Part shown: positions 11,828 through 64,000 of the stretch, in pieces | How the letters are laid out: each line of letters begins with the position of its first letter | Numbering within the stretch: the first letter of the stretch is position 1 | Virus record (IMG/VR): IMGVR_UViG_3300045988_027877 | Span: 32,001 to 96,000 of that record | Direction: 5' to 3' (one strand) | Source: a virus | Length of the DNA: 64,000 nt | Made by a program: the position numbers and the translations under genes | The notes under the pieces: model-generated | Seen by the model: only the letters and a program-made list of their open reading frames with translations | What the model was told of the DNA's origin: nothing | The model's database searches: none

Positions 11828-11828
11828 T

Positions 11829-46675: not shown

Positions 46676-47179
46676 TTAGCACTCTTCTGGCATGTCTTCG
46701 AAGGGATCTTCGATAACATCACCAAAAGGGATGACGGATTTTATTTCGTGAAATTCATTAGTAAACAATACACTTGGCAAATTAGTACGAATACCATTAA
46801 ATAGCTCAAGTGTCTTACTCATTTCGGATTTACTTAGTTCTGCGGGTCCACCGCTGATTAGTATATCTCTACGAGTTTTAATTTCTTTAGGTAAAGTAAA
46901 TACAGCTATTTCATACCACTGGTCATTTATTCGAATCTGACGTAGACTATGAAAATACTTATTCTTTCTTAGCTCGTATTGAAGATTCAACAATGCTTTT
47001 ATTGTTGTTTCTCTATACATTACAAATAAGTTATCACAGAAATAAGGTTCATCTGGATAATCTGTATATACATTTACAAGATTTTCGTTTACTAACTTCT
47101 TATTGTCTATCACTAAGTGCAACAAACAAGCTGTTGCTTCATTTAAGTTCTTCAGTTCCATTATTCTCGTAATATTCAC
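46676..47179 (-). CDS. Hypothetical protein
   Basis: 167-aa uninterrupted ORF with TAA stop. The 5' end overlaps the upstream gene, so the start may be internal. Confidence 0.5.
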   Translation of the reverse strand: MNITRIMELKNLNEATACLLHLVIDNKKLVNENLVNVYTDYPDEPYFCDNLFVMYRETTIKALLNLQYELRKNKYFHSLRQIRINDQWYEIAVFTLPKEIKTRRDILISGGPAELSKSEMSKTLELFNGIRTNLPSVLFTNEFHEIKSVIPFGDVIEDPFEDMPEEC

Positions 47180-48113: not shown

Positions 48114-48217
48114 GCTGCTAAATATAAATCGGTTTCAACTTCCATGTTTGTATTCCATGGGATCTCGTCTTCTATATCCTGACGGATATGTTTAGACATC
48201 TTGTATATGACTATCAT
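48110..48217 (-). CDS. Possible 35-aa ORF filling the gap
   Basis: ATG 48217 to TGA 48110-48112, which overlaps the downstream ATG (ATGA). No other support. Confidence 0.2.
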   Translation of the reverse strand: MIVIYKMSKHIRQDIEDEIPWNTNMEVETDLYLAA

Positions 48218-48234
48218 TAGAAATAAAATCATAA

Positions 48235-49119: not shown

Positions 49120-49130
49120 AACTTCTGTTT

Positions 49131-49508
49131 TTATGTTTTTAGTTTGTCGATTAACTCATCGACTTGTTTCTACGTATGTACAACATAGAACGCTGTTTTA
49201 GGTTCATGTGTGTACAAATAATAGTTAAATAACTTTTCACGCAAAGGCCACGCCTCATTAGGGAAGCCTTTACATTCAATCACGAAACCTTTACCAACAA
49301 AGTCTGGTAAATAGGTCATCGGTCTGTATCTTTTGTTTCCAAAAGTAAAAGCTGGAAGAAGTTCGTATCTGTGCTGCTCATAGTCTGCCTAGATCTTTGC
49401 TTCTTTCAGCTTTTTATATGTATAAGTTTCCAGTTTACTTCGGAATTTTATTCCATCGTATTCATTAGGAGTTGCGTTTCTTACTTTTCCAGTCTTCTAT
49501 TTTTTCAT
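49131..49508 (-). CDS. DUF1064-like / Holliday-junction-resolvase-like nuclease with three in-frame TAG codons
   Basis: Minus-strand ATG 49508 to TAA 49131-49133. TAGs at 49497-49499, 49389-49391 and 49170-49172. Translation: MKK(Q)KTGKVRNATPNEYDGIKFRSKLETYTYKKLKEAKI(Q)ADYEQHRYELLPAFTFGNKRYRPMTYLPDFVGKGFVIECKGFPNEAWPLREKLFNYYLYTHEPKTAFYVVHT(Q)KQVDELIDKLKT. The K..N..T..DGI.F.S..E and Y.PDF...IE.KG patterns match the family as I recall it. Confidence 0.55.
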
Positions 49509-49815
49509 AAAAGAATTCTTTAATATAAAATATTATATTATCTATTTTCCACCATAACTTCTTATAAAAAGGAGTTTTACGTAAGTCATCTTCGATGCGC
49601 TTATAATATTCTTCTTCTGAAAAAGTAAGTAATGCTATATACATGTCGTCCCGTTCACTACTACATGTAGTGCACCAGTCGATAATATCTTTCTCTTCCC
49701 ACATATCTTGACGAATCACGACATCTGGGTCCTTTTCATCTTCTTCTAAGAAACGATTATTTTGAAATTCTTCTCTATAATTTTCAAGAAGTTCGATAAG
49801 TTTAGATAACTTCAT
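49465..49815 (-). CDS. Hypothetical protein
   Basis: 116-aa ORF with TAA stop. Confidence 0.5.
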   Translation of the reverse strand: MKLSKLIELLENYREEFQNNRFLEEDEKDPDVVIRQDMWEEKDIIDWCTTCSSERDDMYIALLTFSEEEYYKRIEDDLRKTPFYKKLWWKIDNIIFYIKEFFYEKIEDWKSKKRNS

Positions 49816-49816
49816 G

Positions 49817-50782
49817 CTATAATTGTTTTGTTAACCAGTTCTTTACTTTTTCAAATCCATTAGCTTTAATAGCATCAGATATATCTTTTGCTTTAAATCT
49901 TTTATGGACTAGCATACCTTCTAAGCCTGTTTTTTGGCTCATTTTACGGAGATATTTCACTCCAGCTTCATCTCTATCAAACATTATAATAATACGTTTA
50001 AAGCGCTTCTTTAGGTGCTCTAAGACATCATTCGGAATAAATGTTGATTCAGATGAAGGTGAAATGGCAGGTATTCCCATTTCATATAGACACATGACAT
50101 CCTTCATACTCTTAGTAATTATTAGGATATCACCTTTCTTTGGTAGTTGCTTATAACCTTGAATATCATATTCAGTAAGGTTATTACGCCACTTTGTATA
50201 TTTATCTGCTAAAGGTTTATATATCTTAAAATGATTATAAACCTTATAAGCATACATTGGATTATCTTCTTTATAAATGCTTTTTACTATGCCATTACAT
50301 AGGTAGTACTTTATACTACTTACTCCAAATTTTTTTAGAGTTTCTACCGTAATATTAAACTGCTTCCAGTAATTGATATCAGTTTCAGTGAATTCCTGAC
50401 GTACAACACCAATTACTGTTTCAGTTGACGGTATGTGTTGCTTAGAGCTAACTAATTGCGTATCATTAGTAATCTTAAGTCTACTTACTATATCTTTAAG
50501 TATATCTGAATAGTTAGTAATGCCTGTGTAAAGCTCTATGAACTTTATTACATTACCACATTCTCCAGTGCCATGATCTTTGAAGAGTAATTGCTTAGTC
50601 TTCCTACTATAAAAACAACCAAATGATGGTGTTTTATCTTTCCTTAAAGGAGAGTTATAGATCATGCCTACTTTAAAATTACCTATATACGCAGCATATA
50701 TATCATATTCTGTTACTCTAGCTAATATCCATTCTAGAGTAATACCAAAATTGTCTTTTACTTTACTTGTATCGTAAACCAT
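49817..50782 (-). CDS. DNA primase (Toprim domain)
   Basis: 321-aa ORF. ...ILIITKSMKDVMCLYEMGIPAISPSSE...IIIMFDRDEAGVKYL (E ... DxD Toprim). Ends in TAG 49817-49819, with TAA 4 codons later. Confidence 0.65.
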   Translation of the reverse strand: MVYDTSKVKDNFGITLEWILARVTEYDIYAAYIGNFKVGMIYNSPLRKDKTPSFGCFYSRKTKQLLFKDHGTGECGNVIKFIELYTGITNYSDILKDIVSRLKITNDTQLVSSKQHIPSTETVIGVVRQEFTETDINYWKQFNITVETLKKFGVSSIKYYLCNGIVKSIYKEDNPMYAYKVYNHFKIYKPLADKYTKWRNNLTEYDIQGYKQLPKKGDILIITKSMKDVMCLYEMGIPAISPSSESTFIPNDVLEHLKKRFKRIIIMFDRDEAGVKYLRKMSQKTGLEGMLVHKRFKAKDISDAIKANGFEKVKNWLTKQL

Positions 50783-50798
50783 GATATATAATTATTTG

Positions 50799-50897
50799 TG
50801 AAGGGAGTCAGATTCGAACTGACATCTGTAACTTCTCCTACAAGCTACTGTATTAGACCTAGATAAGGGCGCCCCTATCGTGTTATACTATCCCAAC
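50799..50897 (-). ncRNA. tRNA-like element (99 nt) with canonical T arm, imperfect acceptor and a 28-nt insertion
   Basis: Minus strand: GTTGGGA-TA-GTAT-AACACG-ATAG-[28 nt incl. GGGCGCCC]-AGCTT-GTAGGAG-AAGTT-ACAGAT-GTCAG-TTCGAAT-CTGAC-TCCCTTC-A. Acceptor stem pairs 5 of 7. The 3' end is 16 nt upstream of the primase ATG. Confidence 0.35.
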
Positions 50898-50904
50898 TTA
50901 TCAA

Positions 50905-50942
50905 ACGTGAGTACTTTCGTTAGACTCTACTTGTACTCACGT
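50905..50942. repeat. Perfect 10-bp inverted repeat with 18-nt loop
   Basis: ACGTGAGTAC (50905-50914) pairs with GTACTCACGT (50933-50942). Confidence 0.6.
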
Positions 50943-50984
50943 ATTCCTAGCTTAAGCCCTAGGTGGCAGCTGTTTTAAGTACGA

Positions 50985-51611
50985 TTAGAACGGCAGATCG
51001 TCTGCTGGATCATTACCTACAGACAATTCATCTACTTTAGTCTCTTTATCGGCAATTACTGGTTTAGTAAACATGTCGATAGAGAGTTTCGTAATCATAC
51101 TTTTATTTTCTGGATTTGTCTCTTTATCATAGAACCCTTCTGGAATATCCATAGGTTCAATTACTGCATAAGAAACATATGAAGGTAAGGTTGTGTAACC
51201 TTTCTCATTATAAGTAACCTTCAATTTCAACAAGATATTCTTATTAGCAGCATTTAGCATAGCAATAGCCCAATCGGAGAACTCCTTATAGCTATTACCA
51301 TTGAAGTTAATCAATTCTTTTGGATAGAAACATTTCAGTACACGCATAATACGTGTTACCTGATTAGTAATCTTACTTTGACTTTGTTCTTCAGTCTCTT
51401 CAGGTTTAATGTTTGGTTCCCATTCAGTATGTAACAATTCCTTTCCGTCTTTTTCAAAACGGAGCTCCATAAAGTTTTTACCAGTAGGAGAGGTCGCAGC
51501 TCTCGCACCAGTGAATTTCACATTATCGTGTATACCAGCTTCGAGAAACTTGCTATTCTTGTTACTATCTGTTATTACTATCTTGCTTGCTAATTCTGTA
51601 CTGTAAATCAT
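50985..51611 (-). CDS. ssb: Single-stranded DNA-binding protein
   Basis: C-terminus ...VGNDPADDLPF matches the acidic DDxPF tail of SSBs. I prefer ATG 51611 (MIYSTELASK...) because the longer ORF-track start overlaps the upstream gene. Confidence 0.6.
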   Translation of the reverse strand: MIYSTELASKIVITDSNKNSKFLEAGIHDNVKFTGARAATSPTGKNFMELRFEKDGKELLHTEWEPNIKPEETEEQSQSKITNQVTRIMRVLKCFYPKELINFNGNSYKEFSDWAIAMLNAANKNILLKLKVTYNEKGYTTLPSYVSYAVIEPMDIPEGFYDKETNPENKSMITKLSIDMFTKPVIADKETKVDELSVGNDPADDLPF

Positions 51612-51630
51612 AATTTCTTTGTTTTGTATG

Positions 51631-52374
51631 TTATTCTTCAGGTAAGAAAATACGATCCATATGGAACGTAATATTGTTATCTTCGTCACTTTCAGCAACG
51701 ACTATGTTCTTACCTCTTAGATGTGGTGCTCTTGCTTCTCTTACTATGTTACTACCACCTTCAAATGAAATGATAGTTTCGTTTTTCTTACGATAGACAT
51801 ATCCAATAGCATCTGCTTCACCACAGATAATGTCTCCTAATCTACCAGTAAGATCAAGTGTCATTTCTGACATTTCTTGTCCTTCTACATTTATCTGTTT
51901 ATCTCTCGTATGAGCAATCAATATAAGATGATCACTTAGATCTCTGAACAAGTCGATTACCTTCTTCACAGCCATTCTAAGCCACATATAGCCACTACCA
52001 TTAGGTAGAGTACGAATGTCTGTTCCTTGATAATTTTTTCCTTGATTCGTACTTTTATAAAGCTGTATGGCATAACCCATACATATCTCCTCTAGTCGAG
52101 TTGCATTATCTATAGTAATATACTTATACGGTTTCTTACCCGTACGACTAATCTCTTCTTTAATTGCTGTAACAATATCTCCAAAATCCTTTACAGATCT
52201 TGCTTGAATAACTAAAGCAGATAAAGCCTGGTAACCGTTTTCCAGGTCGATAATCAGATTGTTCTCTAGGGCTGCCATAAGACAGGATTTACCTGCCTTA
52301 GGCTTTCCATAGAAAACGGCAAACTTAGGATTACATACCTTTGCTTCGGTTTTTTCTTTTGGTAATACAATCAT
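51631..52374 (-). CDS. RecA-like ATPase of the AAA_24 / Sak4-like family
   Basis: FAVFYGKPKAGKSCLMAAL (Walker A) and DHLILIAHTRDK (Walker B-like strand). Confidence 0.55.
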   Translation of the reverse strand: MIVLPKEKTEAKVCNPKFAVFYGKPKAGKSCLMAALENNLIIDLENGYQALSALVIQARSVKDFGDIVTAIKEEISRTGKKPYKYITIDNATRLEEICMGYAIQLYKSTNQGKNYQGTDIRTLPNGSGYMWLRMAVKKVIDLFRDLSDHLILIAHTRDKQINVEGQEMSEMTLDLTGRLGDIICGEADAIGYVYRKKNETIISFEGGSNIVREARAPHLRGKNIVVAESDEDNNITFHMDRIFLPEE

Positions 52375-52454
52375 AAAGCTAATTTATTTCTTGTATTCCG
52401 CGTTTCTGGTAAACTCTGACAAATTCTGATAAGTACGGAATCTTAATATCTTAT

Positions 52455-52880
52455 TTAGAACAAACCACTATTCTTCAACTTAATTGTGATGTCGATAATG
52501 GTTTTCTTTGTTTTCGGTTTTAGGTGATTCAGAGAACCCGGTGTAATAGGAATTACATCGTAGCCAATCTGAACGAAATTATCGAAGATACGAATCGGAG
52601 TACCGAACTCGTCTTCAAAGTCATAGTCTTTAGCTGTTACACTAAGAGCGCTCATGAATTTGAAGAACTCATCCTCCAAGTCGCTAATATTAAACGGACA
52701 TTTTGTTCCAGCAGGGCAAGAAATTGTATCTAGATAATAGTAATCAAAGATCTCTTTGTCTTCTTTCTTTTTACCCAGCCAAGGATAAGCGTTCAATATT
52801 TTATCAGCAAGAATGTTCTTGTTGTTAAAAGCACTAGTATTGTTTTTCTTCGGTAATGTAAATGAATATTTTGTAATCAT
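52455..52880 (-). CDS. Hypothetical protein
   Basis: 141-aa ORF with TAA stop. Confidence 0.5.
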   Translation of the reverse strand: MITKYSFTLPKKNNTSAFNNKNILADKILNAYPWLGKKKEDKEIFDYYYLDTISCPAGTKCPFNISDLEDEFFKFMSALSVTAKDYDFEDEFGTPIRIFDNFVQIGYDVIPITPGSLNHLKPKTKKTIIDITIKLKNSGLF

Positions 52881-52905
52881 AATTTTCAGCCTTTAATTGT
52901 TATTA

Positions 52906-53868
52906 CTAAAACGAAATCTTCTTTGCAGGTTCCGTATTCTTTAGCGTTTCAATTAAATTATTGTATTTTAAATCATTGTCAAACTCTAGAATTGCACATT
53001 CTCCAGCATCTCTATTCTTTAAGATGTGGAGATATACCTTATTCTTAACTAGTAGACGATTTGGTCCATACTGCTGTATATTGAGCAATTCTGGTCTGTG
53101 AATACAGATAACGTAATCTGACGCGTGAAATATAGTATCCGCAGAAGAAATATCACTACGCATTGGATAATGCATAGATGGATTGTTAATCCTATCAGGA
53201 GCCTCAATGTTTCGGTTCATCTGTGATAACTGGATTATAGTAGTATTAGGGTACTTTTTAACCCTAATAAACAGTTTCTGTAAATCCGAAATCACTTTCA
53301 GTGCAGATTCTTGACCTTCTACAAGCAAGGTATGGTCTAGGATAATAATAAATTTCTTATCCTTAGCATAATTCTCATAGAAGTAATCAATAGTAGAAGC
53401 TATTTCTCCAACCGTCCCAGGTGTATCTACATAATATATCTGGTATGATTTTATCTGTTGAGATGCTTTCTCAACTTCTGCTAATGTTTCATCTGCAAGA
53501 TCTCCATTAGCGCTGTATAGCTGTGCAGTAGTTTGCCTTAACTTACTACTTAATTTTCTACCTACCTGCCTTGAACTTAACATCTCAAATGAGAAGTTAA
53601 GCACGACGACATCCTGATCTGGATTTAGGTCTATCAAATCAGTTTCTAACGTATTAACAAATGATGATTTACCACTACCTGATATACCTACTATAGTATA
53701 TATCGTATTCGGTTCAATACCACCCATACAATGTGTATTGAACTTATTCCATCTTGTCTTAAGAGATTGAATCTGATGATTCTTTCTCTCTCTGATATAC
53801 TCTACTGCTTCATTAGCAGCAGTAGAGATATGACGGAAAGTAAGTGTATTAGTAGAGTTCTGTTCCAT
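52906..53868 (-). CDS. DnaB-like replicative helicase (RecA-fold C-terminal domain)
   Basis: IYTIVGISGSGKSSFVNTL (Walker A), FIIILDHTLLV (Walker B), IIQLSQMNR. The stop is TAG 52906-52908, immediately followed by TAA TAA. Confidence 0.7.
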   Translation of the reverse strand: MEQNSTNTLTFRHISTAANEAVEYIRERKNHQIQSLKTRWNKFNTHCMGGIEPNTIYTIVGISGSGKSSFVNTLETDLIDLNPDQDVVVLNFSFEMLSSRQVGRKLSSKLRQTTAQLYSANGDLADETLAEVEKASQQIKSYQIYYVDTPGTVGEIASTIDYFYENYAKDKKFIIILDHTLLVEGQESALKVISDLQKLFIRVKKYPNTTIIQLSQMNRNIEAPDRINNPSMHYPMRSDISSADTIFHASDYVICIHRPELLNIQQYGPNRLLVKNKVYLHILKNRDAGECAILEFDNDLKYNNLIETLKNTEPAKKISF

Positions 53869-54415
53869 AACTATTACTAATTACAGGTTCCTCTACTTTC
53901 ATTTGCTCCTCGTAGGTTTCCCACTCGTGTTGAGTGAGCCATTTCCACATAGTTTTCATATAACCTATTTTACCGGTTAGCATTTTATTATCTATCTCGA
54001 AAGATAAACAATTCATTATATGCTGATGCATAGCTCTGCTTTTACCGACTATTCGATTATACTCTTTCCTACATTTGTTTACATTAGCCCTTAAGAAACC
54101 TTTAGTTCCATCAGGTCTTATAACATAAACTGGAAATAGGTCATAGAATTCATCAAACATAGATTTATCTTCTTTTAGAAGTTCCTCTAGTTTTGCTGTT
54201 TTCTTTATGACTGTGGTATCGTCTACAGTGCTGGTAGCGATTAAACCACGAGATTCTAACTCTTGTATCTCTTCTTCATTAACTAGGCTGAGAAGTTTCT
54301 GAATGTCTTGATTGATGTTTTTGAAATCACTCAATACAAGTGTTAGGAATACTAGCTGATTAATAGATAAATTTTCAATCCTGTCAAGGATTGAGGTGTC
54401 TATTTCTAAAATCAT
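53849..54415 (-). CDS. Hypothetical protein (helicase-loader/replication-organiser position)
   Basis: 188-aa ORF overlapping the helicase start by 20 nt. Confidence 0.45.
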   Translation of the reverse strand: MILEIDTSILDRIENLSINQLVFLTLVLSDFKNINQDIQKLLSLVNEEEIQELESRGLIATSTVDDTTVIKKTAKLEELLKEDKSMFDEFYDLFPVYVIRPDGTKGFLRANVNKCRKEYNRIVGKSRAMHQHIMNCLSFEIDNKMLTGKIGYMKTMWKWLTQHEWETYEEQMKVEEPVISNSYGTELY

Positions 54416-54470
54416 AGTCTCATATATTATATGAGCTTACGGTTTCTGAAATTATCTGATAAAGCCTCTG

Positions 54471-56450
54471 TTAATCCCATAGGCTCATTTGTAACGGTTT
54501 CAGTTCTCTGATTATCTTATAGGCTTCCATAATGTAATACCTATAATTAATCTTTCTCTCTTCTATTGGTTTATCATCTAAGTAATTTAATAAAGTAACA
54601 CCAGATGCAGTAAGCATATTCTGATACTGCCTTTCTTTGGCTGTATATCTTTGTGTGCCTACATAAGGTACATCGTATTCAACGATTTCACCCTCTTTAT
54701 AACCTGTTGGTTTCCATTTCCATAAGTAAGCACCATTAGTACTTGCATAGAAACGATTAGTTCTCTGTTGTTCTTTATTATTATACTCAACATGCCATTG
54801 TTTACCAGTCTTTTCAGACATTAGAAAGTCTCTAATATCTTGGCAACCTTTTATAGTTTCCTCTACTGGCACTCCGTTCTTAAAAAAGTTTATTACTGCT
54901 TTCGGTATGATCTTCGGAGTTAGACCTTTTCCTAATTTTACAGTAGTAATAAACATACCTTTCTCTTTTACTGAATCATCTTCAGCAATAGCGAAATAGT
55001 CATTTATAGCATATTGATACATGGCTTTGAAACGTTCTTCCTCAAGTGTTAGCTTAGTAAGTTGTTCCCAATCACGACAAACTTTGTTTACTTTAGAATA
55101 TACATCTTTCTTAAGTAAGACGAATAAACCATCAGTATTTGCCTGGACGATTCGACATCCTAGTTGGGTAAGTTTCTCTGCTAGCATTAGTAATAGTAAC
55201 TGTCCATTTATTCTAATTTGCATTACAGCAAATGGACTATAACAGAAATTATGTTCATTCTGTAAGTTACCTGATAAACCATTAAGAGCTAGCTTTAAGG
55301 TTTCATTCTTAACCTTATTGCCATTGTGTTTTGCTTCGATACGCTCATCTTTAATCTGCTTATATACTTCTAGGAATTCAGGACCTAAGTGTTTAGGATA
55401 GAATTCATATTCTATTAGCATACTTGGATATAGAGATGCAACATCTATATCAATGAGCAACTCGTCTTCTTTCGGAATTATTATTTCTGGCTTATTCACT
55501 GAATGAATGCCACCAACTCCTACAGAATACTGTAATCCTTCAAATACGAATTTGTTTTCATATCCTTTTCTTCCAGGAGATACTATCTGACTTTTCATAT
55601 CAGCTAGTACTTTTTGAAGTACAGGACTATCGTACTTAATAAATGGTAATATAACAGCATTTAACGGTATTACAGACATAGGAGATCTTAAATCTTTAAT
55701 ATCCCACCATGTTTGTCCTGTCTTTTCCAGATACTTCTGGGTTAGGATCTTCATACCAATGTTTACACCATCTTTACTAAGTACTCTTACTCCGTATTCG
55801 TCTTCGATAGCGATCCTAAGATCAATATCTTTTTTGCATCTATTGAGTAACTCTTCAGTAGAATTAACATCATTAATATTATACTCAATCATTGAGTCTA
55901 TTTGACTTTCAGGCAAATCAGCCTGCCAGTCTGTAACAAATTCCTGTACATTTTTGTACTGCATTGTTACTTGAATCTCTTTCAAACCTACTCTTAACTT
56001 ATTACTATATAACATAGTAAGTAAATCAAAAGAATCGAAACAAACCATATATTTCCACTTCTTCCAAGCGTTGATATCATCTTCACTTGAATCAGTGATT
56101 ACTTTACTTAGGTTAAATATAGACCTACATATAGTTCTATAACCTTTGTATTTCATAGTATTATAATAATCTATTATATAGTTTATAATAGCATTATCAT
56201 AATGAAGATTATTATATCCACAGAATAGTTTATCAGTATTAAACTGAATATCTGTAGTATAAAGATCTCCGAATGTATGATTTGTATTTATAGTATGAAA
56301 GAACTCTACGAGCTCATCTAATTGATTGCTTCTGCAAGATATTTCAAATTTATGTAACTCACCTGTTTCTGTATTTTTTACAGTACAATGAAAGACATTG
56401 GGGAATACCTCAATATCATATACATAAACAATCTTATCTCGTATAATCAT
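54471..56450 (-). CDS. Family-B DNA polymerase
   Basis: 659-aa ORF. VYVYDIEVFPN (Exo I), IDVASLYPSMLIEY (motif A, DxxSLYPS), KLALNGLSGN (motif B-like), VQANTDGLFV (motif C). Confidence 0.8.
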   Translation of the reverse strand: MIIRDKIVYVYDIEVFPNVFHCTVKNTETGELHKFEISCRSNQLDELVEFFHTINTNHTFGDLYTTDIQFNTDKLFCGYNNLHYDNAIINYIIDYYNTMKYKGYRTICRSIFNLSKVITDSSEDDINAWKKWKYMVCFDSFDLLTMLYSNKLRVGLKEIQVTMQYKNVQEFVTDWQADLPESQIDSMIEYNINDVNSTEELLNRCKKDIDLRIAIEDEYGVRVLSKDGVNIGMKILTQKYLEKTGQTWWDIKDLRSPMSVIPLNAVILPFIKYDSPVLQKVLADMKSQIVSPGRKGYENKFVFEGLQYSVGVGGIHSVNKPEIIIPKEDELLIDIDVASLYPSMLIEYEFYPKHLGPEFLEVYKQIKDERIEAKHNGNKVKNETLKLALNGLSGNLQNEHNFCYSPFAVMQIRINGQLLLLMLAEKLTQLGCRIVQANTDGLFVLLKKDVYSKVNKVCRDWEQLTKLTLEEERFKAMYQYAINDYFAIAEDDSVKEKGMFITTVKLGKGLTPKIIPKAVINFFKNGVPVEETIKGCQDIRDFLMSEKTGKQWHVEYNNKEQQRTNRFYASTNGAYLWKWKPTGYKEGEIVEYDVPYVGTQRYTAKERQYQNMLTASGVTLLNYLDDKPIEERKINYRYYIMEAYKIIRELKPLQMSLWD

Positions 56451-56470
56451 AGTTAATGGTGTTAAGTTTG

Positions 56471-56529
56471 TTCCCCTGGTCGGACTCGAACCGACATTTA
56501 GGAATTTTAGCCATTTAAACTACAGGGGT
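56471..56529 (-). ncRNA. tRNA-like element (59 nt) lacking an anticodon arm
   Basis: Minus strand: ACCCCTG-TA-GTTT-AAATGGCT-AAAA-TTCCTAAAT-GTCGG-TTCGAGT-CCGAC-CAGGGGA-A. U8, A14, G18G19 and the T-loop are canonical. Only 9 nt occupy the place of the anticodon arm plus variable loop. The 3' end is 20 nt upstream of the polymerase ATG. Confidence 0.45.
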
Positions 56530-56592
56530 TCCAGCGTATTACCGCATGATTACATTTTTTTAATTATGAAAAATTTAATTCGCAGGCAAAGT

Positions 56593-57219
56593 TTAGGCGG
56601 CCTGCTTAGCCTGTTTCATTGAATAGATTTTTGCTGTGCTATTGCGTGCAAAACCTCTATTCTTCTTGTGACGCCCAGTTCCTTTTTCAGGACATCTAGT
56701 GTTTCCTACCTTGTATGTACGAACATACTTGGTCTTAAACTCTACAAGGGAAGCTTTATACTTAGCCTTGTCTTCTTTACTCTGTTTTCTAGCTATTGCT
56801 CTGTCAAGCTTAGCTGTAAGCACAATAGTATGCTTAATAGCATCTATGTCTTTATGCTTTAATCCATGCTTAATTGCTTTAGTAAGCATAGCTTCTTTCG
56901 CTTTGAGTATGAGAGCCTTTCTATGAGCTTTCTTTGCTTTTCTGCGTTCTTTCAGCTCATCACAGTAAAAGTCTTTAGGTTGAAAGTCAATCTTTGCAGA
57001 TCGCTCACGAGCTTCACGAATTCTAGCATTTCTTTCTTCTTTCCATTTCTTAGGAACGATAGGTTTCTTTCCTGCTTTTTCGCGAGCTTCAGCTTCTTCA
57101 GCAGATATTAACATCTTGCATCCTTGCAAACTTCTTCTGTCGGCTTTCCAGATGTTTCTTAACTCAATTCTCTTTTTGCTACGAGCTATTTTATATTGCT
57201 TATTATTCTTGTCCATCAT
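56593..57219 (-). CDS. Highly basic Lys/Arg-rich protein
   Basis: 208-aa ORF dominated by K/R/A/E runs (e.g. KERRKAKKAHRKALILKAKEA). Confidence 0.55.
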   Translation of the reverse strand: MMDKNNKQYKIARSKKRIELRNIWKADRRSLQGCKMLISAEEAEAREKAGKKPIVPKKWKEERNARIREARERSAKIDFQPKDFYCDELKERRKAKKAHRKALILKAKEAMLTKAIKHGLKHKDIDAIKHTIVLTAKLDRAIARKQSKEDKAKYKASLVEFKTKYVRTYKVGNTRCPEKGTGRHKKNRGFARNSTAKIYSMKQAKQAA

Positions 57220-57236
57220 ATCTTGATAATATTAAT

Positions 57237-57244
57237 AGTTAATA
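57237..57244 (-). promoter_or_regulatory. TATTAACT motif 17 nt upstream of ATG 57219
   Basis: Minus strand: gtTATTAACTattaatattatcaagatATG. Confidence 0.3.
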
Positions 57245-57245
57245 A

Positions 57246-57908
57246 CTATGCTGCAAGCAGCTTTGACCTAGTATAATAAGTTATACTATTGTCTCCTTCC
57301 ATATCATAAACGGTAACACCAGTAAAAGAGGAATCCTTTTCAAATTTCTTAGCTTCTTTTACTGCTAATTTGAAAGCGTCTTCTTTAGAAGTAGCTTCAA
57401 AATAGTCGGTCTTGAAATCGTATACTCTGTGATCTTCTATAGTTTGTACTACTGCTGGTACAATCTTTTCAGGTCTCTTTCGTTGAATTACGTATTTAAA
57501 TTTACGTTTATTCACTTCCTCTTCGGAAGGAATTACAACTTCTTTCTTAGCAAATAGATTCTTTTTTACAGTACGAGTGAATTTCTTCTTCTCTTTTCTT
57601 GTATACTTAATAGTAGGATCGAAGCCAGCACTAGCTAAGATCTGTTTAATACGATCTTTCTTAGCTTGTTTAGCTGTTTTATTCTCTTGTCTTGCATTTT
57701 TACCTATATCTGTTGTGTAGCTCTTCTGGCTAACTTTTCCAACGATATTAGTAATACTGACTTTCCCATCTTCTCCTTTAGTAATAAAGGGTGACGGACC
57801 CGGACTTCTAAATACTACTTCTGTCTTCTTTGAACGACGTAGTTTAGAACGGTTAGTTCTGGATAATTTTACTCCAGTTCTCTTATGTTGTACTTTCTGC
57901 TTTTTCAT
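57246..57908 (-). CDS. Second basic Lys/Arg-rich protein
   Basis: 220-aa ORF. Ends in TAG 57246-57248, with the next in-frame stop (TGA) 9 codons later. Confidence 0.55.
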   Translation of the reverse strand: MKKQKVQHKRTGVKLSRTNRSKLRRSKKTEVVFRSPGPSPFITKGEDGKVSITNIVGKVSQKSYTTDIGKNARQENKTAKQAKKDRIKQILASAGFDPTIKYTRKEKKKFTRTVKKNLFAKKEVVIPSEEEVNKRKFKYVIQRKRPEKIVPAVVQTIEDHRVYDFKTDYFEATSKEDAFKLAVKEAKKFEKDSSFTGVTVYDMEGDNSITYYTRSKLLAA

Positions 57909-57924
57909 CTTGATAATGTTTAAT

Positions 57925-57932
57925 AGTTAATA
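57925..57932 (-). promoter_or_regulatory. TATTAACT motif 16 nt upstream of ATG 57908
   Basis: Minus strand: agTATTAACTattaaacattatcaagATG, directly after hairpin 57936-57953. Confidence 0.3.
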
Positions 57933-57935
57933 CTA

Positions 57936-57953
57936 GTGAGCCCGAAGGCTCAC
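57936..57953 (-). terminator. Hairpin with UUCG tetraloop between two early genes
   Basis: Minus strand: GTGAGCC-TTCG-GGCTCAC, 5 nt after the stop of 57959-58468. No T-run. Confidence 0.4.
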
Positions 57954-57958
57954 ATTTA

Positions 57959-58468
57959 TTATGCCGCTAGGCAAATTGGTGCAGACTCTATATCTAGTTC
58001 TGCTTTTTCGTTGAAATCTACTAAATCTTTTGTTAATTTATTGATCTCTAGCTGAAGCTTATTCTTCAACGTACCAATAAAGGCAGAAGTAAGCTCTTCT
58101 GTATTATTGAGCGCTTTCTTACCCTTAGCACGTTTAAGCTTCGGATCAATTGTTTTAATTCGATTTAAATGGTTTAATTGTTCTTGTTTCTCTGAAAGTG
58201 AAAATATCGTAATGTAATTATTATCATTAGACAATTCTGAAAACTTCTTGTATCCCATGTTAATACACTGTAGATACAACTTCATAAGGAAACGTTCTTC
58301 AGCCATCTCTTGGATCTTAGTAAGTAATACTTTAAGATCATAGTTTCGCTTTGCTTCCTTAGAAATAACGTTTTCAATCTGTATTATGTGCCAATACTTA
58401 GTTATATCTTTACTAAGATTGTAAATACGTTCTTTTGCATATTTAGATGTAATTGATTTCATATTCAA
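57959..58468 (-). CDS. Hypothetical protein
   Basis: 169-aa ORF with TAA stop. Confidence 0.5.
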   Translation of the reverse strand: MNMKSITSKYAKERIYNLSKDITKYWHIIQIENVISKEAKRNYDLKVLLTKIQEMAEERFLMKLYLQCINMGYKKFSELSNDNNYITIFSLSEKQEQLNHLNRIKTIDPKLKRAKGKKALNNTEELTSAFIGTLKNKLQLEINKLTKDLVDFNEKAELDIESAPICLAA

Positions 58469-58484
58469 GTGATTTGTTTTTTTA

Positions 58485-58492
58485 AGTTAATA
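58485..58492 (-). promoter_or_regulatory. TATTAACT motif 16 nt upstream of ATG 58468
   Basis: Minus strand: agTATTAACTtaaaaaaacaaatcacttgaatATG. Confidence 0.3.
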
Positions 58493-58519
58493 CTCAACCA
58501 AATTACGTCTACTAGTTAG

Positions 58520-58584
58520 TCATGCATGAGAGGATCAAACTCCCGTCTCTCTAAAGAGCGCTCTAATCACTAAGCTAATGCATG
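58520..58584 (-). ncRNA. tRNA-like element (65 nt) with truncated anticodon arm
   Basis: Minus strand: CATGCAT-TA-GCTT-AGTGATTA-GAGC-G-CTCT-TTAG-AGAG-AC-GGGAG-TTTGATC-CTCTC-ATGCATG-A. It has a perfect 7-bp acceptor stem, a D arm and a T arm. The central arm is only a 4-bp stem with a tetraloop. Confidence 0.4.
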
Positions 58585-58681
58585 GGATTGAAACTGCCCA
58601 GTTCAGCAGTCTCTATTTTGTTGTAGTACCCCATTCAGTACTATAACAAAGAGATTAATTGACAAGTGTCCAGTTCAACAC

Positions 58682-59242
58682 TTATTCGTCAATTATAACT
58701 GTTTTACCAAGATAGCACGGTAATACCCGTCCATCTTCTAGTCTAATACCTATAAAGCCCCGAGGACCTTCAGTCATCTTAACTTTTCGGTTGTGCCCTT
58801 TCTCATCTGCATACTTTTGTAAATACTTTTCATTGATATACTTAGAGTGTAACTCCCCGTTCGGACTACACCGTAAGTTATCAAATAAGATGTCTACTAT
58901 ACAGTCGAGATCATTATTATCTTCAGCTTCCTTAAGTATGGCTTTCATCATGCCATAGAAAGCTTCTTCATTTTTTGCTTCTCCAGAGCCAGACATTATG
59001 CTTGCTGCTTTGATTGCGATATCCGTGATACTCACCGATCCATGAGTATTAAAGAATCGTTGCAACCATTTCGGACCTGAACCATAATATAAGATAACCT
59101 GTCCATTATCTAATATATCTACCTTTTTTGGCTGCTCTTCAAGTCTCCCATTCAATACCTTTACTTTAGCCAAAATAGATGGTTCATATATGATTAGCAT
59201 ACGTAAGAAGTCAACCCGAGAAGGTGACAATCTTCCTATCAT
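58682..59242 (-). CDS. Hypothetical protein
   Basis: 186-aa ORF with TAA stop. Confidence 0.5.
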   Translation of the reverse strand: MIGRLSPSRVDFLRMLIIYEPSILAKVKVLNGRLEEQPKKVDILDNGQVILYYGSGPKWLQRFFNTHGSVSITDIAIKAASIMSGSGEAKNEEAFYGMMKAILKEAEDNNDLDCIVDILFDNLRCSPNGELHSKYINEKYLQKYADEKGHNRKVKMTEGPRGFIGIRLEDGRVLPCYLGKTVIIDE

Positions 59243-59247
59243 AATGT

Positions 59248-59880
59248 TTATTCGCTCTTTTCAATGTGAACGTTTACCTCAAGTTCTGCACTGCTGATAC
59301 CGCATTCGCGCATATAGTTAGTGTAGATCCGTCGGTTGTTTTCTGAATATCCACGAACAGTCTTAGCGAGCATCATACACTTACGAGCCATTTCCTCGTA
59401 CGTATTGATACTACCGTTGTTCGCGATCTCTACGAGCTTGTCAAGGTTCGGCAAGTCTTCAGCAGAGAAGAACATCGGTTTGCTACCTGGCTTACTAAGC
59501 CGGTCAATAGCTTCAGTGACTGTTTCACGAGTTGCTTTACTGAAATCCGGTTCAGCGATTTCGAACATCATCGGTTCTACGCCGGGAATACCAACATTGA
59601 TACCGATCTTCGGCCGTTGATCCAAATCTTTTTCAATAATACTGATACTCATAATGTCAATAGCTTTGACAATATAAGCCTTAATTTCGTTGCGGAAATC
59701 ATTGATTCCGTTCATAGTGTTTTCCTTCCATTTCGGATCAGGACAAACAGCTACGATAGTAAACACTTGCTTACCGAACAAAGGTCCGTAATACTTCTGA
59801 GCGATTTGCCGGTTCTGGGCAAGAATCTGTGCAGCCATAGTTCCAACTACGGGGTTGCCGTTCTGATTAATATTGTCCAT
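59248..59880 (-). CDS. Hypothetical protein (GC-richer than the bulk of the window)
   Basis: 210-aa ORF with TAA stop. Confidence 0.5.
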   Translation of the reverse strand: MDNINQNGNPVVGTMAAQILAQNRQIAQKYYGPLFGKQVFTIVAVCPDPKWKENTMNGINDFRNEIKAYIVKAIDIMSISIIEKDLDQRPKIGINVGIPGVEPMMFEIAEPDFSKATRETVTEAIDRLSKPGSKPMFFSAEDLPNLDKLVEIANNGSINTYEEMARKCMMLAKTVRGYSENNRRIYTNYMRECGISSAELEVNVHIEKSE

Positions 59881-59943
59881 AAAAATGTTTCCCTTCTTGA
59901 TTCCGTACTTGATATACCATACGGATCATTTTAATGTTTTTTA

Positions 59944-59951
59944 AGTTAATA
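59944..59951 (-). promoter_or_regulatory. TATTAACT motif 63 nt upstream of ATG 59880
   Basis: Minus strand: aaTATTAACTtaaaaaacattaaaatg... Confidence 0.25.
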
Positions 59952-60074
59952 TTCGTTTTAATGCTCTCTACCGTTCGATTATTTCTTAGCACTACAGTAA
60001 TGGTAGTGGTGAATTCAATCACATAATCTACTAAGCTTTAATAGAATAAATGTCAATTTATTTGAAAATATCAT

Positions 60075-60115
60075 CTGATAAAATCTCTGATAAAATATGA
60101 CAAAGATTGATAAAT
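60075..60115. repeat. Iteron-like short direct repeats (CTGATAAAAT x2, TTGATAAAT)
   Basis: CTGATAAAAT at 60075-60084 and 60087-60096; TTGATAAAT at 60107-60115. Confidence 0.4.
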
Positions 60116-62102
60116 GTTTATCGTCCCGTGTCGACGGCTAAGATTCAACTCTTTCGATGCTTAGCGCACCTATCACCGTAATCCTATATCGCGATTGGAT
60201 GCAATATAGAAAACTAAGTCAATGGCATCTTTTCAGCCTATTAGTATTTCCGGAAATTACGACAATCTATGCGATTGAAGGTCGTTTTATCTAAACATTA
60301 CTAAAACTCACAAGCCCATTGCTTGAAGCATGGCCCACTTGTACCTCTCGGATTTGTTGTTTATACTGCGCGAATACTGGGATTTCCACCCTTCATCGTT
60401 TCCTTACTGCCTAATTGCTCTTGCTATTAGGTCAAAATGTACTTAGCCCTTTAATCTACCGAGACAGGGTGATTGGCTGTAGGTTATTAACGATTCAGCG
60501 TTCTCTTTACACATTTATTTGCTGTAAATGTTTTAGGAGTGTCTAATGTCAGCGTAACGGTTGGCAGTCTAAGGGTGACTCGTACTCCATGCGGTCTATC
60601 TTACAACTGATAATTTGCCACTTCTGTACTATCATTGAACTTCCTTAATTATTTGTGACCATAGCCTTCCTTCACTATGCGTCGATTAATAATATATTAA
60701 CTATCTCTTAGAACAGATTTAACTAGGCCAGTTCTATTCGGCATTAACTTTCAGATGCAGTAGAGTAACATCATCTGTTCACAATCTTACCTCTCTGGTT
60801 CCAGGGTTCTAAGCTGGAGCAGCTTGGCTCTTACTTGTTAACTTGTTGTTTTTGACTACTACTAATATCTCCTACTCTGGAATGAGTGTGATAATCTAAT
60901 AGTACACCTTTTCATATCTTGAAAGGTATAAGCTCTGCTGTTTTTTAATAGGAGTACCAAGACTCTCCTTGCTTATTATTTTATGCCATATCATACTTGC
61001 TAAAGGTATGTGACAACTAGAATCAGGGTTATAGCGCCCTCAAACCGCCTGAACACTCTGGGTTCAGTCATTCCTCATTCATTTATACTCACACGAACGA
61101 CTAAGCACGTGAGTCACTTTAGACTTGAAAGAATGCTATCAATCTCATATAGCTTCATCCCTCATACGTAAGTTCTTTTGCAGCACACTATTTACGATAA
61201 TGCACAGGATTGGCTCCTGCTCCACGATAATCAATCAGAGTAAAACTACACGTAGTTCTACAATCTGGATCATTGCGTTTCCAGCTTTCATATCCTTACT
61301 TTGCATAAGTATGTACCATAACACGGTTATCCTTCATTAGTATCAGTATTTACTTCCCTTCATATAACGGCTATCTACAAGCTTTTACGAGTAGACGAGA
61401 CAGATTCTCTCCATTAGAACACTAGAAGTTAGCACCCGTATTTTCTCTTTCTGAACGCATACTTGCGCTTTTGTTAAGCGAGTTTGGAGCCCGCTGGAGG
61501 ACGTTCGTCAGTCCTTAATATAAATATATGTTTCGACGTTCCTTTCCAAAGGGATTAGTCCAAGAGCCGTATTGCCCTTGTTTCAGCATCGTGTTTATAC
61601 TCCTTTTTGAATCACATCTTGATAGTGCATACGAGCATTAGGATTTCGTTCCTATTTTGGAGATTATGGATATTGTTACTAAGTAGTTTTATTTGTTTAT
61701 TCTACCAACTATATCTCTCCGATTTGAATTAATTTATGACTAGGGTATCTTCTTGTAGCTCCTAAATCAAGGGTTCTTCACATTTAATATCGCCAGCCGG
61801 TTCTCATATTATTTGCGTGGGCTATTCACCCTCTCCCACTTTCCCTACCTTTTTCACCAGTATGGGCTATTATCCTACCTTTTGAGTATCTCACCGTTGT
61901 TGCGGCTATGGAGCATCTCATAACTACTCCTGACATATTCTCGGATTCTGTATCTTTTCGGGCTATGTGTTAATGGACACAAACTCCCTGACGCGGTAGT
62001 ACTTGAAAACTTCCTACTGTGACCGCCGGAGTGATTCACGCTTTGGTTTTACTCCTCTCGAACCATAGTATAATTATAGTATTTGTATAGCGGCTATTAC
62101 TA

Positions 62103-62528
62103 TTAACTTTTTTCCGCTGAGGATTTATCTTCTCCTGCAATTTCTTGTTCTGGTCTTGCCGGAATAATTTCTCCTGATGGTAGAAATATTGTAGCTACAA
62201 CTTTCTTGCCACGGCATAGATCAACTACGCCATCTTTTATATCACTACTACTGATATAATCGACAGGATCCATTCTTCCTGGATCAAATCCATCCAAACT
62301 AGCACAAATCTTACTTACAGACGAGCGTAAGTACTGTTCTACGAATAAGGTATTACTGATACTAGCTTTCGCTTGTACCTGTATGAGATTAGAGTTCTCT
62401 CCAGCTACTATAAAGTAGTTGGTTTGGTCTATCACTGAATCTAAATTACGCCTTGCATCTTTGCAACTACGAATGATACGTGATAGCCGTACCATCGTAG
62501 TAAGCATAATAAGATTCTTCTTATTCAT
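62103..62528 (-). CDS. Hypothetical protein
   Basis: The ORF track gives 62103-62555. ATG 62528 (MNKKNLIML...) gives an ATGAATAA overlap with the upstream stop, so I prefer it. Confidence 0.45.
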   Translation of the reverse strand: MNKKNLIMLTTMVRLSRIIRSCKDARRNLDSVIDQTNYFIVAGENSNLIQVQAKASISNTLFVEQYLRSSVSKICASLDGFDPGRMDPVDYISSSDIKDGVVDLCRGKKVVATIFLPSGEIIPARPEQEIAGEDKSSAEKS

Positions 62529-62925
62529 TTGAGATATCTTTAGTAAAAGGTGCAAGTGGTTTTACATCCTCTGGCATATTCGCGATACTGCGTACCTTTG
62601 GAAATCCTGTGTTGACTTCTTTTACTCTAGTTCTCCACTTAACAACTGGTTTAAGCTCACCAGTTGTTGTAACGTTCACAATTGCGTCTGCTGTTCCTTT
62701 TACGGATACTTCCTGAGTATTAACGTCATAAGACACAGTAATAGTGTCTACTTTACTCACAGACTGCTTCTCTTCTTTATTAGAGTTCATCATAGACATT
62801 AACTCTAAATATGAAGGAACTACAGGTTGTTGTGCCTGCACGGGTTCGACAGTACTGATTAAATTATAACCAACTAATAAGCTGATTGCAAAGAAACCAA
62901 TTGTCGATAGAATTCTACTATTCAT
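62521..62925 (-). CDS. Small secreted/membrane-anchored protein
   Basis: 134 aa. The N-terminus MNSRILSTIGFFAISLLVGYNLISTVEPVQAQQ looks like a signal peptide or TM anchor. Confidence 0.5.
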   Translation of the reverse strand: MNSRILSTIGFFAISLLVGYNLISTVEPVQAQQPVVPSYLELMSMMNSNKEEKQSVSKVDTITVSYDVNTQEVSVKGTADAIVNVTTTGELKPVVKWRTRVKEVNTGFPKVRSIANMPEDVKPLAPFTKDISNE

Positions 62926-62989
62926 ATTGATTATGAGTTAGTGAACAGTTTCTTAAGGTAGTATACGATATTCCACTTAGACGGCGCTG

Positions 62990-64000
62990 TTAGCTTTTTT
63001 TTTCTTCAGCCGGCTTGTCTTCAGTCTTTGGAGTTTCCGGATATTCTCCAACGAGAGTAGGCAGAGGGCCTTCGAATTCAGCTATCTGATCCATTGGTTG
63101 ACGATATACATTGATGATCTTACCGATTGCGAAACGAATCTGTTCGTTAGTCGGTTCAACCTTGCCTGGATAATAGTTAGCACGTACAAGACTGATAATC
63201 TTGCGAGCAGCAGCACGGGATTCCTTGATTTCCATTAACTGCTCATCTGTAGCATTTTCAGGTACAGGGCGAGTATAATCAGCCATCAATTTGTCAACAT
63301 ATTCCAATCCAACACTACCAACTACAGATTGAATAGCCTTATCCTCTGTAGGTTTCGGCTTTTCGGTTTTGATAACATTGCCGTTTGCGTCAATCTTATC
63401 TTCCAAGCTATAGCGATAGTTTTCCTGAATCAGTACTTTCAGCAGACTGACAATGTCTTCTTCACTCCAGTTAGGCAATTTGCCATGCAGAATACTGTGA
63501 GCAGATACTGGAGAACCTTGCTGTTTCGTATAAAGATATACGGAACGTCCAAGACCCTTCATCAATCCTGCAATTGGAATGAGATGGAAGATTTCGTCAA
63601 TCCATTCGTTAAGTGGTTTAGCATCGAGTGCAAGCTTAGCATCAGCAGAACTTGCGTTGTTCATACACAACCCACGATACCATTCTAAGGTTTTGTCAAT
63701 ACAAACCGTAATATCACGGTTCTGGTGCATCAAATAGTCCAAAGCTGCACAAATCTTTTCGTGATCTGTACCAACTTTGCCATAGTCGAGATCAGGTACA
63801 GTTTGTACCGGAGCTTTCTTATCATTCAATTCTTCGGGAACAACAGTATCCGGTGAAGTGAAATCAATAGCAAGCTGTTTTTCACCTTGCGGGCCTACAA
63901 TTGCTTTTGGTGCAGCAAGAGTAATACCCAGCATTTCTGCTACTTCGTTCAAAGGCATCAGCTGATCTTCAGGTATCTTCGCAACAATCTGACCACCTGA
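62990..64000 (-). CDS. Hypothetical protein, 5' end possibly beyond window edge; GC-richer
   Basis: 322-aa ORF from ATG 63958. The frame stays open upstream to position 64000 (…SGGQIVAKIPEDQL-M). TAA stop at 62990-62992. Confidence 0.5.
   Translation of the reverse strand, partial: SGGQIVAKIPEDQLMPLNEVAEMLGITLAAPKAIVGPQGEKQLAIDFTSPDTVVPEELNDKKAPVQTVPDLDYGKVGTDHEKICAALDYLMHQNRDITVCIDKTLEWYRGLCMNNASSADAKLALDAKPLNEWIDEIFHLIPIAGLMKGLGRSVYLYTKQQGSPVSAHSILHGKLPNWSEEDIVSLLKVLIQENYRYSLEDKIDANGNVIKTEKPKPTEDKAIQSVVGSVGLEYVDKLMADYTRPVPENATDEQLMEIKESRAAARKIISLVRANYYPGKVEPTNEQIRFAIGKIINVYRQPMDQIAEFEGPLPTLVGEYPETPKTEDKPAEEKKS

Follow-up and report, generated by a model that had tools for sequence, protein, structure and literature searches.

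A gap of 2.2 kilobases (kb), bounded by the start codon of one gene (ATG 59880) and the stop codon of another (62103), raises the question of what a phage genome carries where no gene can be recognised. The gap (59881-62102) lies in the window analysed here, 64,000 nucleotides (nt) of DNA that correspond to positions 32,001 to 96,000 of the IMG/VR virus record IMGVR_UViG_3300045988_027877 and belong to a Buchavirus (Crassvirales, Suoliviridae, Loutivirinae). A sequence-only reading of the window had proposed a large structured RNA of no known family at this place, with an origin of replication or decayed genes as alternatives. Family-wide conservation, covariation, strand-specific G-U pairs, the absence of a coding signal and the lack of any Rfam match all support the first of these proposals. 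We put at roughly 70% the probability that the minus strand of 60120-62064 specifies a single new structured non-coding RNA of ~1.95 kb, functional as a folded molecule. The combination of a large fold, no family match and the same place in every subfamily of the Suoliviridae, which rank among the most abundant human gut viruses, is what makes a new and unusually big functional RNA the probable answer.

The gap is free of open reading frames (ORFs) as originally described. The longest one in a six-frame list reaches 71 amino acids (aa) (61125-61340, plus strand), and nothing exceeds it in any frame. TAA, TAG and TGA are each present in all six frames, and when a single stop is read through, the longest minus-strand frame extends to 86 (TAG), 79 (TGA) or 108 (TAA) codons; no single reassignment opens a frame, and the claim that the region is not a second recoding is borne out. 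The 2168 nt without an ORF of at least 90 codons form the largest such stretch of the window, while the runner-up (1215 nt) is a product of TAG recoding in the late genes. The guanine-cytosine (GC) argument put forward for a structured RNA proved half right: at 38.3% the region is GC-rich in comparison with the window (34.3%) and the minus-strand block (34.2%), but the genes directly upstream (62103-64000) reach 40.1%, and the elevation therefore holds against the genome and not against the neighbours. The purine skew of the transcribed minus strand is retained in the region, as stated before (0.570 vs 0.567 in the minus block). Seven of the eight short hairpins listed in the sequence-only reading pair exactly as given, and the eighth, at 61540-61553, is real but had been placed one base off (CCUUU/AAAGG). 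Across 20 homologues 84% of the cells of these hairpins are paired, and 15 of their 37 pairs show compensatory changes, compared with 3-9 in slid controls.

The element is not confined to the window. Identity over the region is 94.8% with the crAss-like phage cr52_1 (Buchavirus copri) and 70-80% with six further Loutivirinae of three genera, and in each of these relatives the same pair of genes encloses 2.1-2.15 kb of unannotated sequence. Scans of IMG/VR for exact motifs located a 22-mer of the GCCAA hairpin in 58 contigs and two other motifs with at least 118 matches each, and at least 112 full-length copies of 2061-2222 nt were gathered. A syntenic gap is present in all five subfamilies: Loutivirinae, Boorivirinae (genomes examined: cr10_1, cr50_1, cr1_1), Uncouvirinae (cr114_1, cr118_1), Bearivirinae (cr6_1) and Oafivirinae (the macaque phage cr130_1). 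Its corrected length is 2.10-2.15 kb in three of the other subfamilies; in Boorivirinae it rises to 2.4-2.5 kb, and in cr118_1 it falls to 1.9 kb. Collinear homology across subfamilies was reached by three routes, namely an nhmmer profile of the Loutivirinae RNA, which matched collinear pieces in the gaps of the other subfamilies, a covariance model of the 3' domain (R1) and anchor motifs. The R1 matches are collinear in the gaps of Boorivirinae, Bearivirinae, Oafivirinae and cr118_1, and outside Loutivirinae they are weak (E 0.002-0.3, the E-values being rough). Beyond a few anchors, a MAFFT alignment spanning all subfamilies was of too low quality, and anchor-based sub-alignments and the covariance model took its place. 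Intact protein genes collinear with the gap, which the sequence-only reading had named as the sign of decay, did not turn up; the opposite was seen, every relative examined retaining the gap. The comparison indicates that the RNA is inherited vertically at one locus in every subfamily of the Suoliviridae (the 'delta' crAss-like group) and that the fold dates back to the origin of the family. In crAss001 (Steigviridae), the one genome from outside the Suoliviridae that was compared, both a homologue and a similar gap are lacking.

Comparison of the copies reveals a conserved RNA fold. In an alignment of 20 representatives that are mutually less than 98.5% identical (A2), RNAalifold predicted 430 pairs in 93 helices. 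Standard pairs occupy 95.0% of the 8471 cells of this model, in comparison with 35-41% when the partners are slid and 88.6% in shuffled alignments. As many as 138 pairs have changed on both sides (slid 24-35; shuffles 81.8 ± 4.8, with none of 500 reaching 138), and double changes fill 577 cells (slid 49-76; shuffles 177). Read as the minus strand, the model contains 894 G-U against 138 A-C combinations, whereas the reverse complement gives 636 against 224; this asymmetry identifies the minus strand as the sense strand and places the constraint at the level of RNA. A structure-agnostic scan, based on mutual information with average-product correction in 96 unique copies (~2.2 million column pairs), came to a similar picture: 46% of the 50 best column pairs are at least 90% canonical, and of the 55 stacked helices rebuilt from the scan 27 coincide with the RNAalifold model, while the remainder include helices absent from the energy model, among them a pseudoknot in the 5' domain.

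This pseudoknot was thus found independently of any folding model. It lies in a 113-nt module for which a plain MAFFT alignment of 16 sequences from four subfamilies, not fitted to structure, was available (A7). At the second position of the pseudoknot A-U occurs in 8 sequences, C-G in 4, G-C in 3 and U-A in 1, so that all four Watson-Crick pairs are represented. An alignment of the 3' domain (A4) gave 91.8% paired cells and 13 of 18 compensatory pairs (2-5 after sliding); being fitted to the covariance model, it is biased towards structure, and A7 is therefore the stronger evidence. Many unpaired nucleotides are invariant and alternate with covarying helices. The alignments thus describe a multi-domain fold with at least 30 covariation-supported helices, one conserved pseudoknot and T-arm-like hairpins, and indicate that purifying selection acts on the base pairs and on many unpaired nucleotides of the minus strand of 60120-62064.

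The variation in the region is not that of a protein gene. Mismatches in pairwise alignment are spread over the three positions modulo 3 as 122/121/131, which means no codon periodicity, while the flanking genes give 43/30/112 (the 210-aa gene) and 17/19/44. Twenty-four of the 35 indels in the region are of length 1 modulo 3, and those of the flanking genes are exclusively multiples of three. With no open frame, no third-position excess and indels that are not in threes, the region lacks the marks of a protein-coding gene or a recent pseudogene. Its divergence is modest as well: the region differs from cr113_1 at 17.6% of positions and the two flanking genes at 29.5% and 18.8%, and the corresponding values for cr53_1 are 32%, 40% and 33%. 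A protein of ~500 aa encoded two genes upstream retains as little as 38% amino acid identity among members of the subfamily, and beyond the subfamily it could not be detected. By these comparisons the region diverges no faster than its flanking genes and is not debris; its compensatory changes, and a conservation that equals or exceeds that of the flanking genes, refute the alternative of decayed genes.

The features recognised in and around the putative RNA are collected in Table 1. The whole case is one of comparative sequence evidence. We infer the ends of the core as follows: the invariant block that comes first, GGUUCGAGAGGAG, marks the 5' end, and the 3' end is set just past the last hairpin of the core (60122-60136).

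Table 1. Features of the candidate RNA, its 3' trailer and the two adjoining genes (positions in the window; A2, A3 and A7 are alignments, R1 a covariance model).
Feature	Position	Strand	Evidence
Putative RNA core, ~1.95 kb	60120..62064	-	A2, RNAalifold, pair counts, covariation scan
Boundary hairpin/inverted repeat AUAGUA...UACUAU	62065..62103	-	Helix 1: 100% paired, 4/6 pairs compensatory
5' domain module, conserved in all subfamilies	61752..61864	-	MAFFT alignment A7
Helix GUGGG/CCCAC and variants	61835-61839 with 61817-61821	-	A7: 98.8% paired, 4/5 pairs covary
Pseudoknot GGGU/ACCC, four pairs	61828-61831 with 61771-61774	-	A7: paired in 16/16 sequences
Stem enclosing invariant loop UGAGAACCG..CUGG	loop 61798-61806	-	A7: 5/6 stem pairs covary
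69-nt lineage-specific expansion hairpin	61654..61722	-	A2 columns 417-488
Hairpin GCAGGA-GCCAA-UCCUGU	61204..61220	-	Best-conserved element family-wide; compensatory variants in five subfamilies
Closed 3' domain GCUG...CAGC	60345..60506	-	Alignment A3, model R1
Terminal hairpins GCUAAG/CUUAGC (60137-60165) and CGUC/GACG (60122-60136)	60122..60165	-	Both covary
3' trailer	59881..60119	-	Sequence; helices 89-93, helix 92 with 5/6 pairs compensatory
Upstream neighbour, 150-aa protein	62103..62555	-	ORF list; syntenic
Downstream neighbour, 210-aa protein	59248..59880	-	ORF list; syntenic in all subfamilies

The boundary hairpin opens with the upstream gene's stop codon, and its loop of 27 nt carries an invariant TATAAT (62073-62078). 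In the alignments both TATAAT and AATTAT are invariant. The hairpin with its TATAAT may serve the RNA as promoter or operator; the motif was not listed by the scan for sigma-70 promoters. Within the core, conserved elements are interspersed with hairpins that come and go. The 69-nt expansion hairpin is carried by the window, cr113_1, cr109_1 and cr56_1 and is absent from cr52_1 (95% identical), cr60_1, cr53_1 and cr4_1, and other hairpins are likewise swapped, lengthened or lost between close relatives. Three hairpins, GG-UGGAAAU-CC, GGA-ACGAAA-UCC and GGA-GCCAA-UCC, resemble the T-arms of transfer RNAs (tRNAs), and the closed 3' domain holds one of this kind (GGG-UGGAAAU-CCC, 60378-60392) together with the invariant AUAAACAACAAAUCC. 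The first of the two terminal hairpins appears in homologues as GUUAAG/CUUAAC or GUUGAA/UUCAAC. No U-tract follows these hairpins, and they are therefore not an intrinsic terminator.

Between the core and the start codon of the 210-aa gene lies a trailer of ~240 nt. It contains a direct repeat of TTATCAGA in two 8-nt copies (60086-60093 and 60074-60081) that lie 12 nt apart, and an invariant 24-mer, AGTAGATTATGTGATTGAATTCAC (60009-60032), within a covarying three-way junction (59970-60036). A further hairpin (59902-59925) directly precedes the purine-rich, ribosome-binding-like stretch ahead of ATG 59880. Most subfamilies retain this hairpin, with compensatory changes, and it was found at the same place in the loci L196, L197, L200 and L201. 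Its loop contains AUCAA, which is repeated right behind the stem. This hairpin may be a translational control element, and the trailer probably does not belong to the big RNA but serves the 210-aa gene as its regulatory region and leader.

Several observations weigh against the proposed RNA. The folding energy of the single sequence is unexceptional when compared with dinucleotide shuffles (z = +0.11 for RNA positions 41-1000, z = -1.78 for 1001-1983), and the excess of hairpins over chance therefore rests on comparative evidence and not on thermodynamics; as z is not significant, single-sequence thermodynamics was discarded as evidence either way. Kinship among the sequences inflates the shuffle statistics, and the shuffle tests therefore overstate significance; the slid controls and the four-state position of the pseudoknot are the sounder figures. 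Scans of the minus strand for sigma-70 promoters and intrinsic terminators gave nothing above chance, and searches with Pfam, PHROGs, PDB and Foldseek recognised no RNA-binding partner among the flanking proteins. Finally, the helices that span more than 900 nt and would hold the entire 2 kb together as one fold (helices 7, 9, 16 and 24) are invariant or vary on one side only, and covariation therefore does not prove a single RNA.

The last point bears directly on the possibility that the locus holds a cluster of several smaller structured RNAs, made separately or cut from a precursor; one such division would give a 5' domain (~1 kb), a middle one and a 3' domain (~0.5 kb). This explanation, which overlaps with that of a single RNA, is unlikely but not negligible. 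The helices backed by covariation are local or mid-range, with spans up to ~200 nt, and the 5' and 3' cores were detected separately in distant subfamilies, the middle being much more divergent. Against separate units speaks the total length, which stays at 2.05-2.2 kb in four subfamilies despite the internal swaps of hairpins; in addition, the modules are never apart or reordered among the genomes examined, and promoter- or terminator-like signals inside the region do not rise above chance on the minus strand.

Distinctly improbable is a giant leader or intercistronic element that acts in cis, its fold governing how the 210-aa gene and those after it are transcribed, processed or translated, without any function in trans. 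The region shares the strand of its neighbours, borders directly on both and has no terminator ahead of the next gene, and the last ~240 nt, with their conserved three-way junction and the hairpin beside the ribosome-binding-like site, would suit such a role. A length of ~2 kb, however, exceeds that of any bacterial or phage leader, none near this size being known to us. Moreover, the core elements (the 5' pseudoknot module, the GCCAA hairpin and the T-arm-like domain) are 0.4-1.9 kb away from the start codon, and the many invariant unpaired nucleotides are as in RNAs with tertiary structure. Still less probable, at a few chances in a hundred, is the origin raised at the outset, or a primer RNA forming an R-loop like RNA II of ColE1: the region adjoins the replication module, with DNA polymerase ~3.4 kb downstream, and the two short repeats of TTATCAGA mark its 3' edge, but cumulative GC skew in the 64-kb window falls monotonically through it with no inflection, constraint acts on base pairs of one RNA strand including G-U, there are no iteron arrays beyond the two 8-mers, the region is not AT-rich, and a conserved multi-domain fold of 2 kb goes far beyond what a primer needs. 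Pseudogene debris, a recoded or frameshifted gene, a self-splicing intron or a mobile insertion can hardly be credited even though Suoliviridae are rich in group I introns and recode TAG in late genes (PMC7886860), and were rejected as far as sequence analysis reaches, since to the absent periodicity, the indels mostly not in threes, the lack of a reassignment that opens a frame and the conservation described above are added the failure to match any Rfam intron even at E up to 10 and a fixed, not sporadic, locus whose two flanking genes are complete in every subfamily, each with a stop and a start of its own.

A single RNA from 60120-62064 would be transcribed with or next to the early and middle minus-strand genes, perhaps starting at the conserved TATAAT, and would act as a folded molecule and not as a message. 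Our tentative preference, held at clearly less than even odds, is for a stable scaffold, ribonucleoprotein or decoy that works with phage or host proteins and is possibly multimeric by analogy with the GOLLD and ROOL RNAs; it would assemble during the take-over of the Bacteroidota host. This role is favoured because the RNA appears to combine a conserved core with expansion segments and many invariant unpaired bases, and because T-loop-type modules and a fixed neighbourhood of small membrane-anchored proteins are present. T-loop-type modules usually make tertiary or protein contacts. A catalytic role seems quite unlikely. A more ambitious and rather doubtful version has the locus encode one RNA machine of ~2 kb, which would act as a ribozyme or supply the RNA core for a phage ribonucleoprotein or a particle that assembles by itself. 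If true, no larger structured non-coding RNA would be known from bacteria and phages apart from those of the ribosome, the largest crAss-like family of the human gut could not complete its infection cycle without this RNA, and its biochemical function would be of a kind undescribed for any phage.

The proposal of a new family also depends on comparison with known RNAs. The search of Rfam that had been recommended was run with cmscan against release 15 (4227 families), at gathering score for the window, at E up to 10 for 59500-62600 and at E up to 1 for four divergent homologues; neither the region nor the homologues gave a match. Within the reach of the models, GOLLD, ROOL, OLE, group I and II introns, ribosomal RNA (rRNA), RNase P, transfer-messenger RNA (tmRNA) and riboswitches were all unmatched, and elsewhere in the window Rfam listed only an unrelated tRNA and a borderline RT-17 motif. 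The element is undescribed in the full-text literature searched. Yutin 2021 noted stretches lacking recognisable genes, chiefly among zeta phages, as well as introns in the delta group, and left this element unmentioned (PMC7886860), and a Crassvirales review of 2023 mentions no non-coding RNA and notes that Suoliviridae had never been cultured as of then (PMC10136315).

The closest relatives in kind would be the giant RNAs of other phages. GOLLD RNA (~800 nt) occurs in prophages of Lactobacillales and in lake metagenomes, and ROOL RNA (~580 nt) in the rumen and in prophages of Firmicutes. Both have been reported as RNA-only homo-oligomeric complexes (PMC12286853). The Suoliviridae RNA shares with them a phage origin, a very large size, a rich structure with pseudoknots and the lack of coding capacity, and it falls within loose bounds for GOLLD/ROOL-like RNAs, being phage-encoded, at least several hundred nt long, non-coding and folded into a complex structure supported by covariation. 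It is 2.5 to 3.5 times longer, however, is matched by neither covariance model and is fixed at one syntenic position across a whole virus family. Its crAss-like carriers are not known to integrate, and such phages infect Bacteroidota, which are assumed to be the hosts here as well (PMC7886860). No tRNA array accompanies it, only a lone tRNA gene 1-4 kb downstream in some genomes. By analogy, oligomerisation is one possible mode of action for the Suoliviridae RNA. We would regard it as a candidate new class within the loosely defined giant structured phage RNAs, set apart by its length (~2 kb vs 0.6-0.8 kb), by its carriers and by a fixed position that appears to be a hallmark of the family.

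Cellular RNAs and introns offer further parallels. In size the RNA belongs with 16S rRNA, and like rRNA and RNase P it has invariant unpaired blocks among covarying helices, a conserved core with expansion hairpins that come and go (61654-61722) and T-loop-like hairpins. It differs from them in lacking homology to small-subunit rRNA, large-subunit rRNA and RNase P at E up to 10, in its restriction to one phage family and in having no recognised conserved RNA-binding proteins beside it. OLE RNA (~600 nt), known from extremophilic Firmicutes, forms a ribonucleoprotein with membrane-associated partners encoded adjacently. Small membrane-anchored proteins are likewise encoded upstream of the Suoliviridae RNA, the link being one of synteny alone, but OLE is cellular and this RNA viral, and Rfam gave no match. 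Group II introns are ribozymes of 0.6-2.5 kb, a range into which the RNA falls, and they too have a multi-domain fold. No domain V/VI or D1-D4 match and no intron-encoded protein was found here, the flanks are two separate complete genes, and the locus is fixed and vertically inherited; neither for group I nor for group II introns was a catalytic core matched, and every subfamily has a separate stop for the upstream gene and a separate start for the downstream one.

To our knowledge, bacteria and phages have yielded very few large structured RNAs whose function is not yet understood: OLE, GOLLD, ROOL, raiA and HEARO. Each of these opened new biology, the latest being RNA-only nanocages, and the Suoliviridae RNA would exceed every one of them in length two- to threefold. 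According to Yutin 2021, the 'delta' group (Suoliviridae) is the largest crAss-like group by number of genomes and accounts for 13-18% of crAss-like reads (PMC7886860). The RNA should therefore be present in a great many human guts and be easily sampled. It would be a target for cryogenic electron microscopy (cryo-EM) and chemical probing, a diagnostic marker for Suoliviridae and a concrete entry point to the study of host take-over by uncultured crAss-like phages.

Current annotation overlooks the element: RefSeq records leave the place blank, extend a neighbour through TAG or fill it with spurious ORFs. Three RefSeq records run the upstream coding sequence (CDS) through in-frame TAG codons into the RNA, which is an annotation artefact (3280-3747 of locus L198, cr114_1; 3437-3907 of L200, cr6_1; 2599-3096 of L201, cr130_1). 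In cr113_1 and cr109_1 a 145-aa 'hypothetical protein' is annotated on the opposite strand inside the RNA (3650-4087 of L002 and L005), and small spurious ORFs of 53 and 61 aa are annotated in the gaps of cr114_1 and cr10_1.

The genes around the gap keep a fixed order in five subfamilies. An extracytoplasmic function (ECF)-type sigma factor is followed by a small membrane protein, a protein of 460-570 aa, one of ~130 aa and the gap, and downstream come proteins of 185-210 aa and 170-190 aa and, further on, DNA polymerase. In the upstream cluster (62103-64000; loci L001-L007 and L195-L201) the sigma factor is of the 'sigma-W' kind and the next small protein has one hydrophobic helix, a layout that resembles a sigma/anti-sigma pair; the 460-570-aa protein evolves fast, and the ~130-aa protein is membrane-anchored. 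The cluster may be functionally tied to the RNA. The position of the upstream neighbour is taken in other Suoliviridae subfamilies by a protein of ~125-140 aa with a hydrophobic N-terminus. Neither flanking protein has a match in Pfam or PHROGs, and against PDB sequences the best hits, at E ~0.02, were phage baseplate and 'ripcord' proteins. For the 210-aa protein, with 11 homologues, AlphaFold2 on the shallow alignment gave a predicted local distance difference test (pLDDT) score of 59, and Foldseek found nothing in PDB below E = 0.39.

A scan of a genome collection for the host matched only mis-binned phage contigs in metagenome-assembled genomes (MAGs), plus two likely chance matches. The seven RNA-bearing phage contigs are 5.6-100 kb long, six of them 25-100 kb, and the MAGs with mis-binned crAss-like contigs are labelled as Syntrophobacterales, Saccharibacteria, Clostridium, Sphaerochaeta, Bacillota and Bacilli. 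One IMG/VR record, IMGVR_UViG_3300045988_036136 (183,699 bp; L107 and L128), carries the RNA motif twice and is roughly double the usual length of these genomes; an assembled concatemer is more probable than a bigger genome.

The plus-strand late genes (1-46623) need TAG read-through, and the minus block (46676-64000) uses the standard code. Under read-through the ORF content of the late region doubles, one frame reaches 4466 codons, and 12 of the 13 late read-through ORFs of at least 250 codons contain in-frame TAG codons, 1-32 each. No suppressor tRNA for these genes is visible within the 64 kb, and ARAGORN reported no tRNA or tmRNA in the region or the whole window. The tRNA listed by Rfam, of 59 nt (56471-56529, minus strand; 35.4 bits vs a gathering score of 29), lies directly upstream of the DNA polymerase gene. 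The RT-17 match (13247-13335, plus strand; 40.8 vs 40.4 bits, borderline) lies between the read-through ORFs 11817-13070 and 13308-14354 of the TAG-recoded late region; RT-17 is a motif associated with reverse-transcriptase genes. In crAss001 (MH675552, 95965-96869; 43286-44190 of L212) an unannotated stretch of ~0.9 kb lies beside a gene with a TROVE domain (Ro60-like). Bacterial TROVE-domain proteins partner with Y-like RNAs, and this stretch may therefore hold another phage non-coding RNA.

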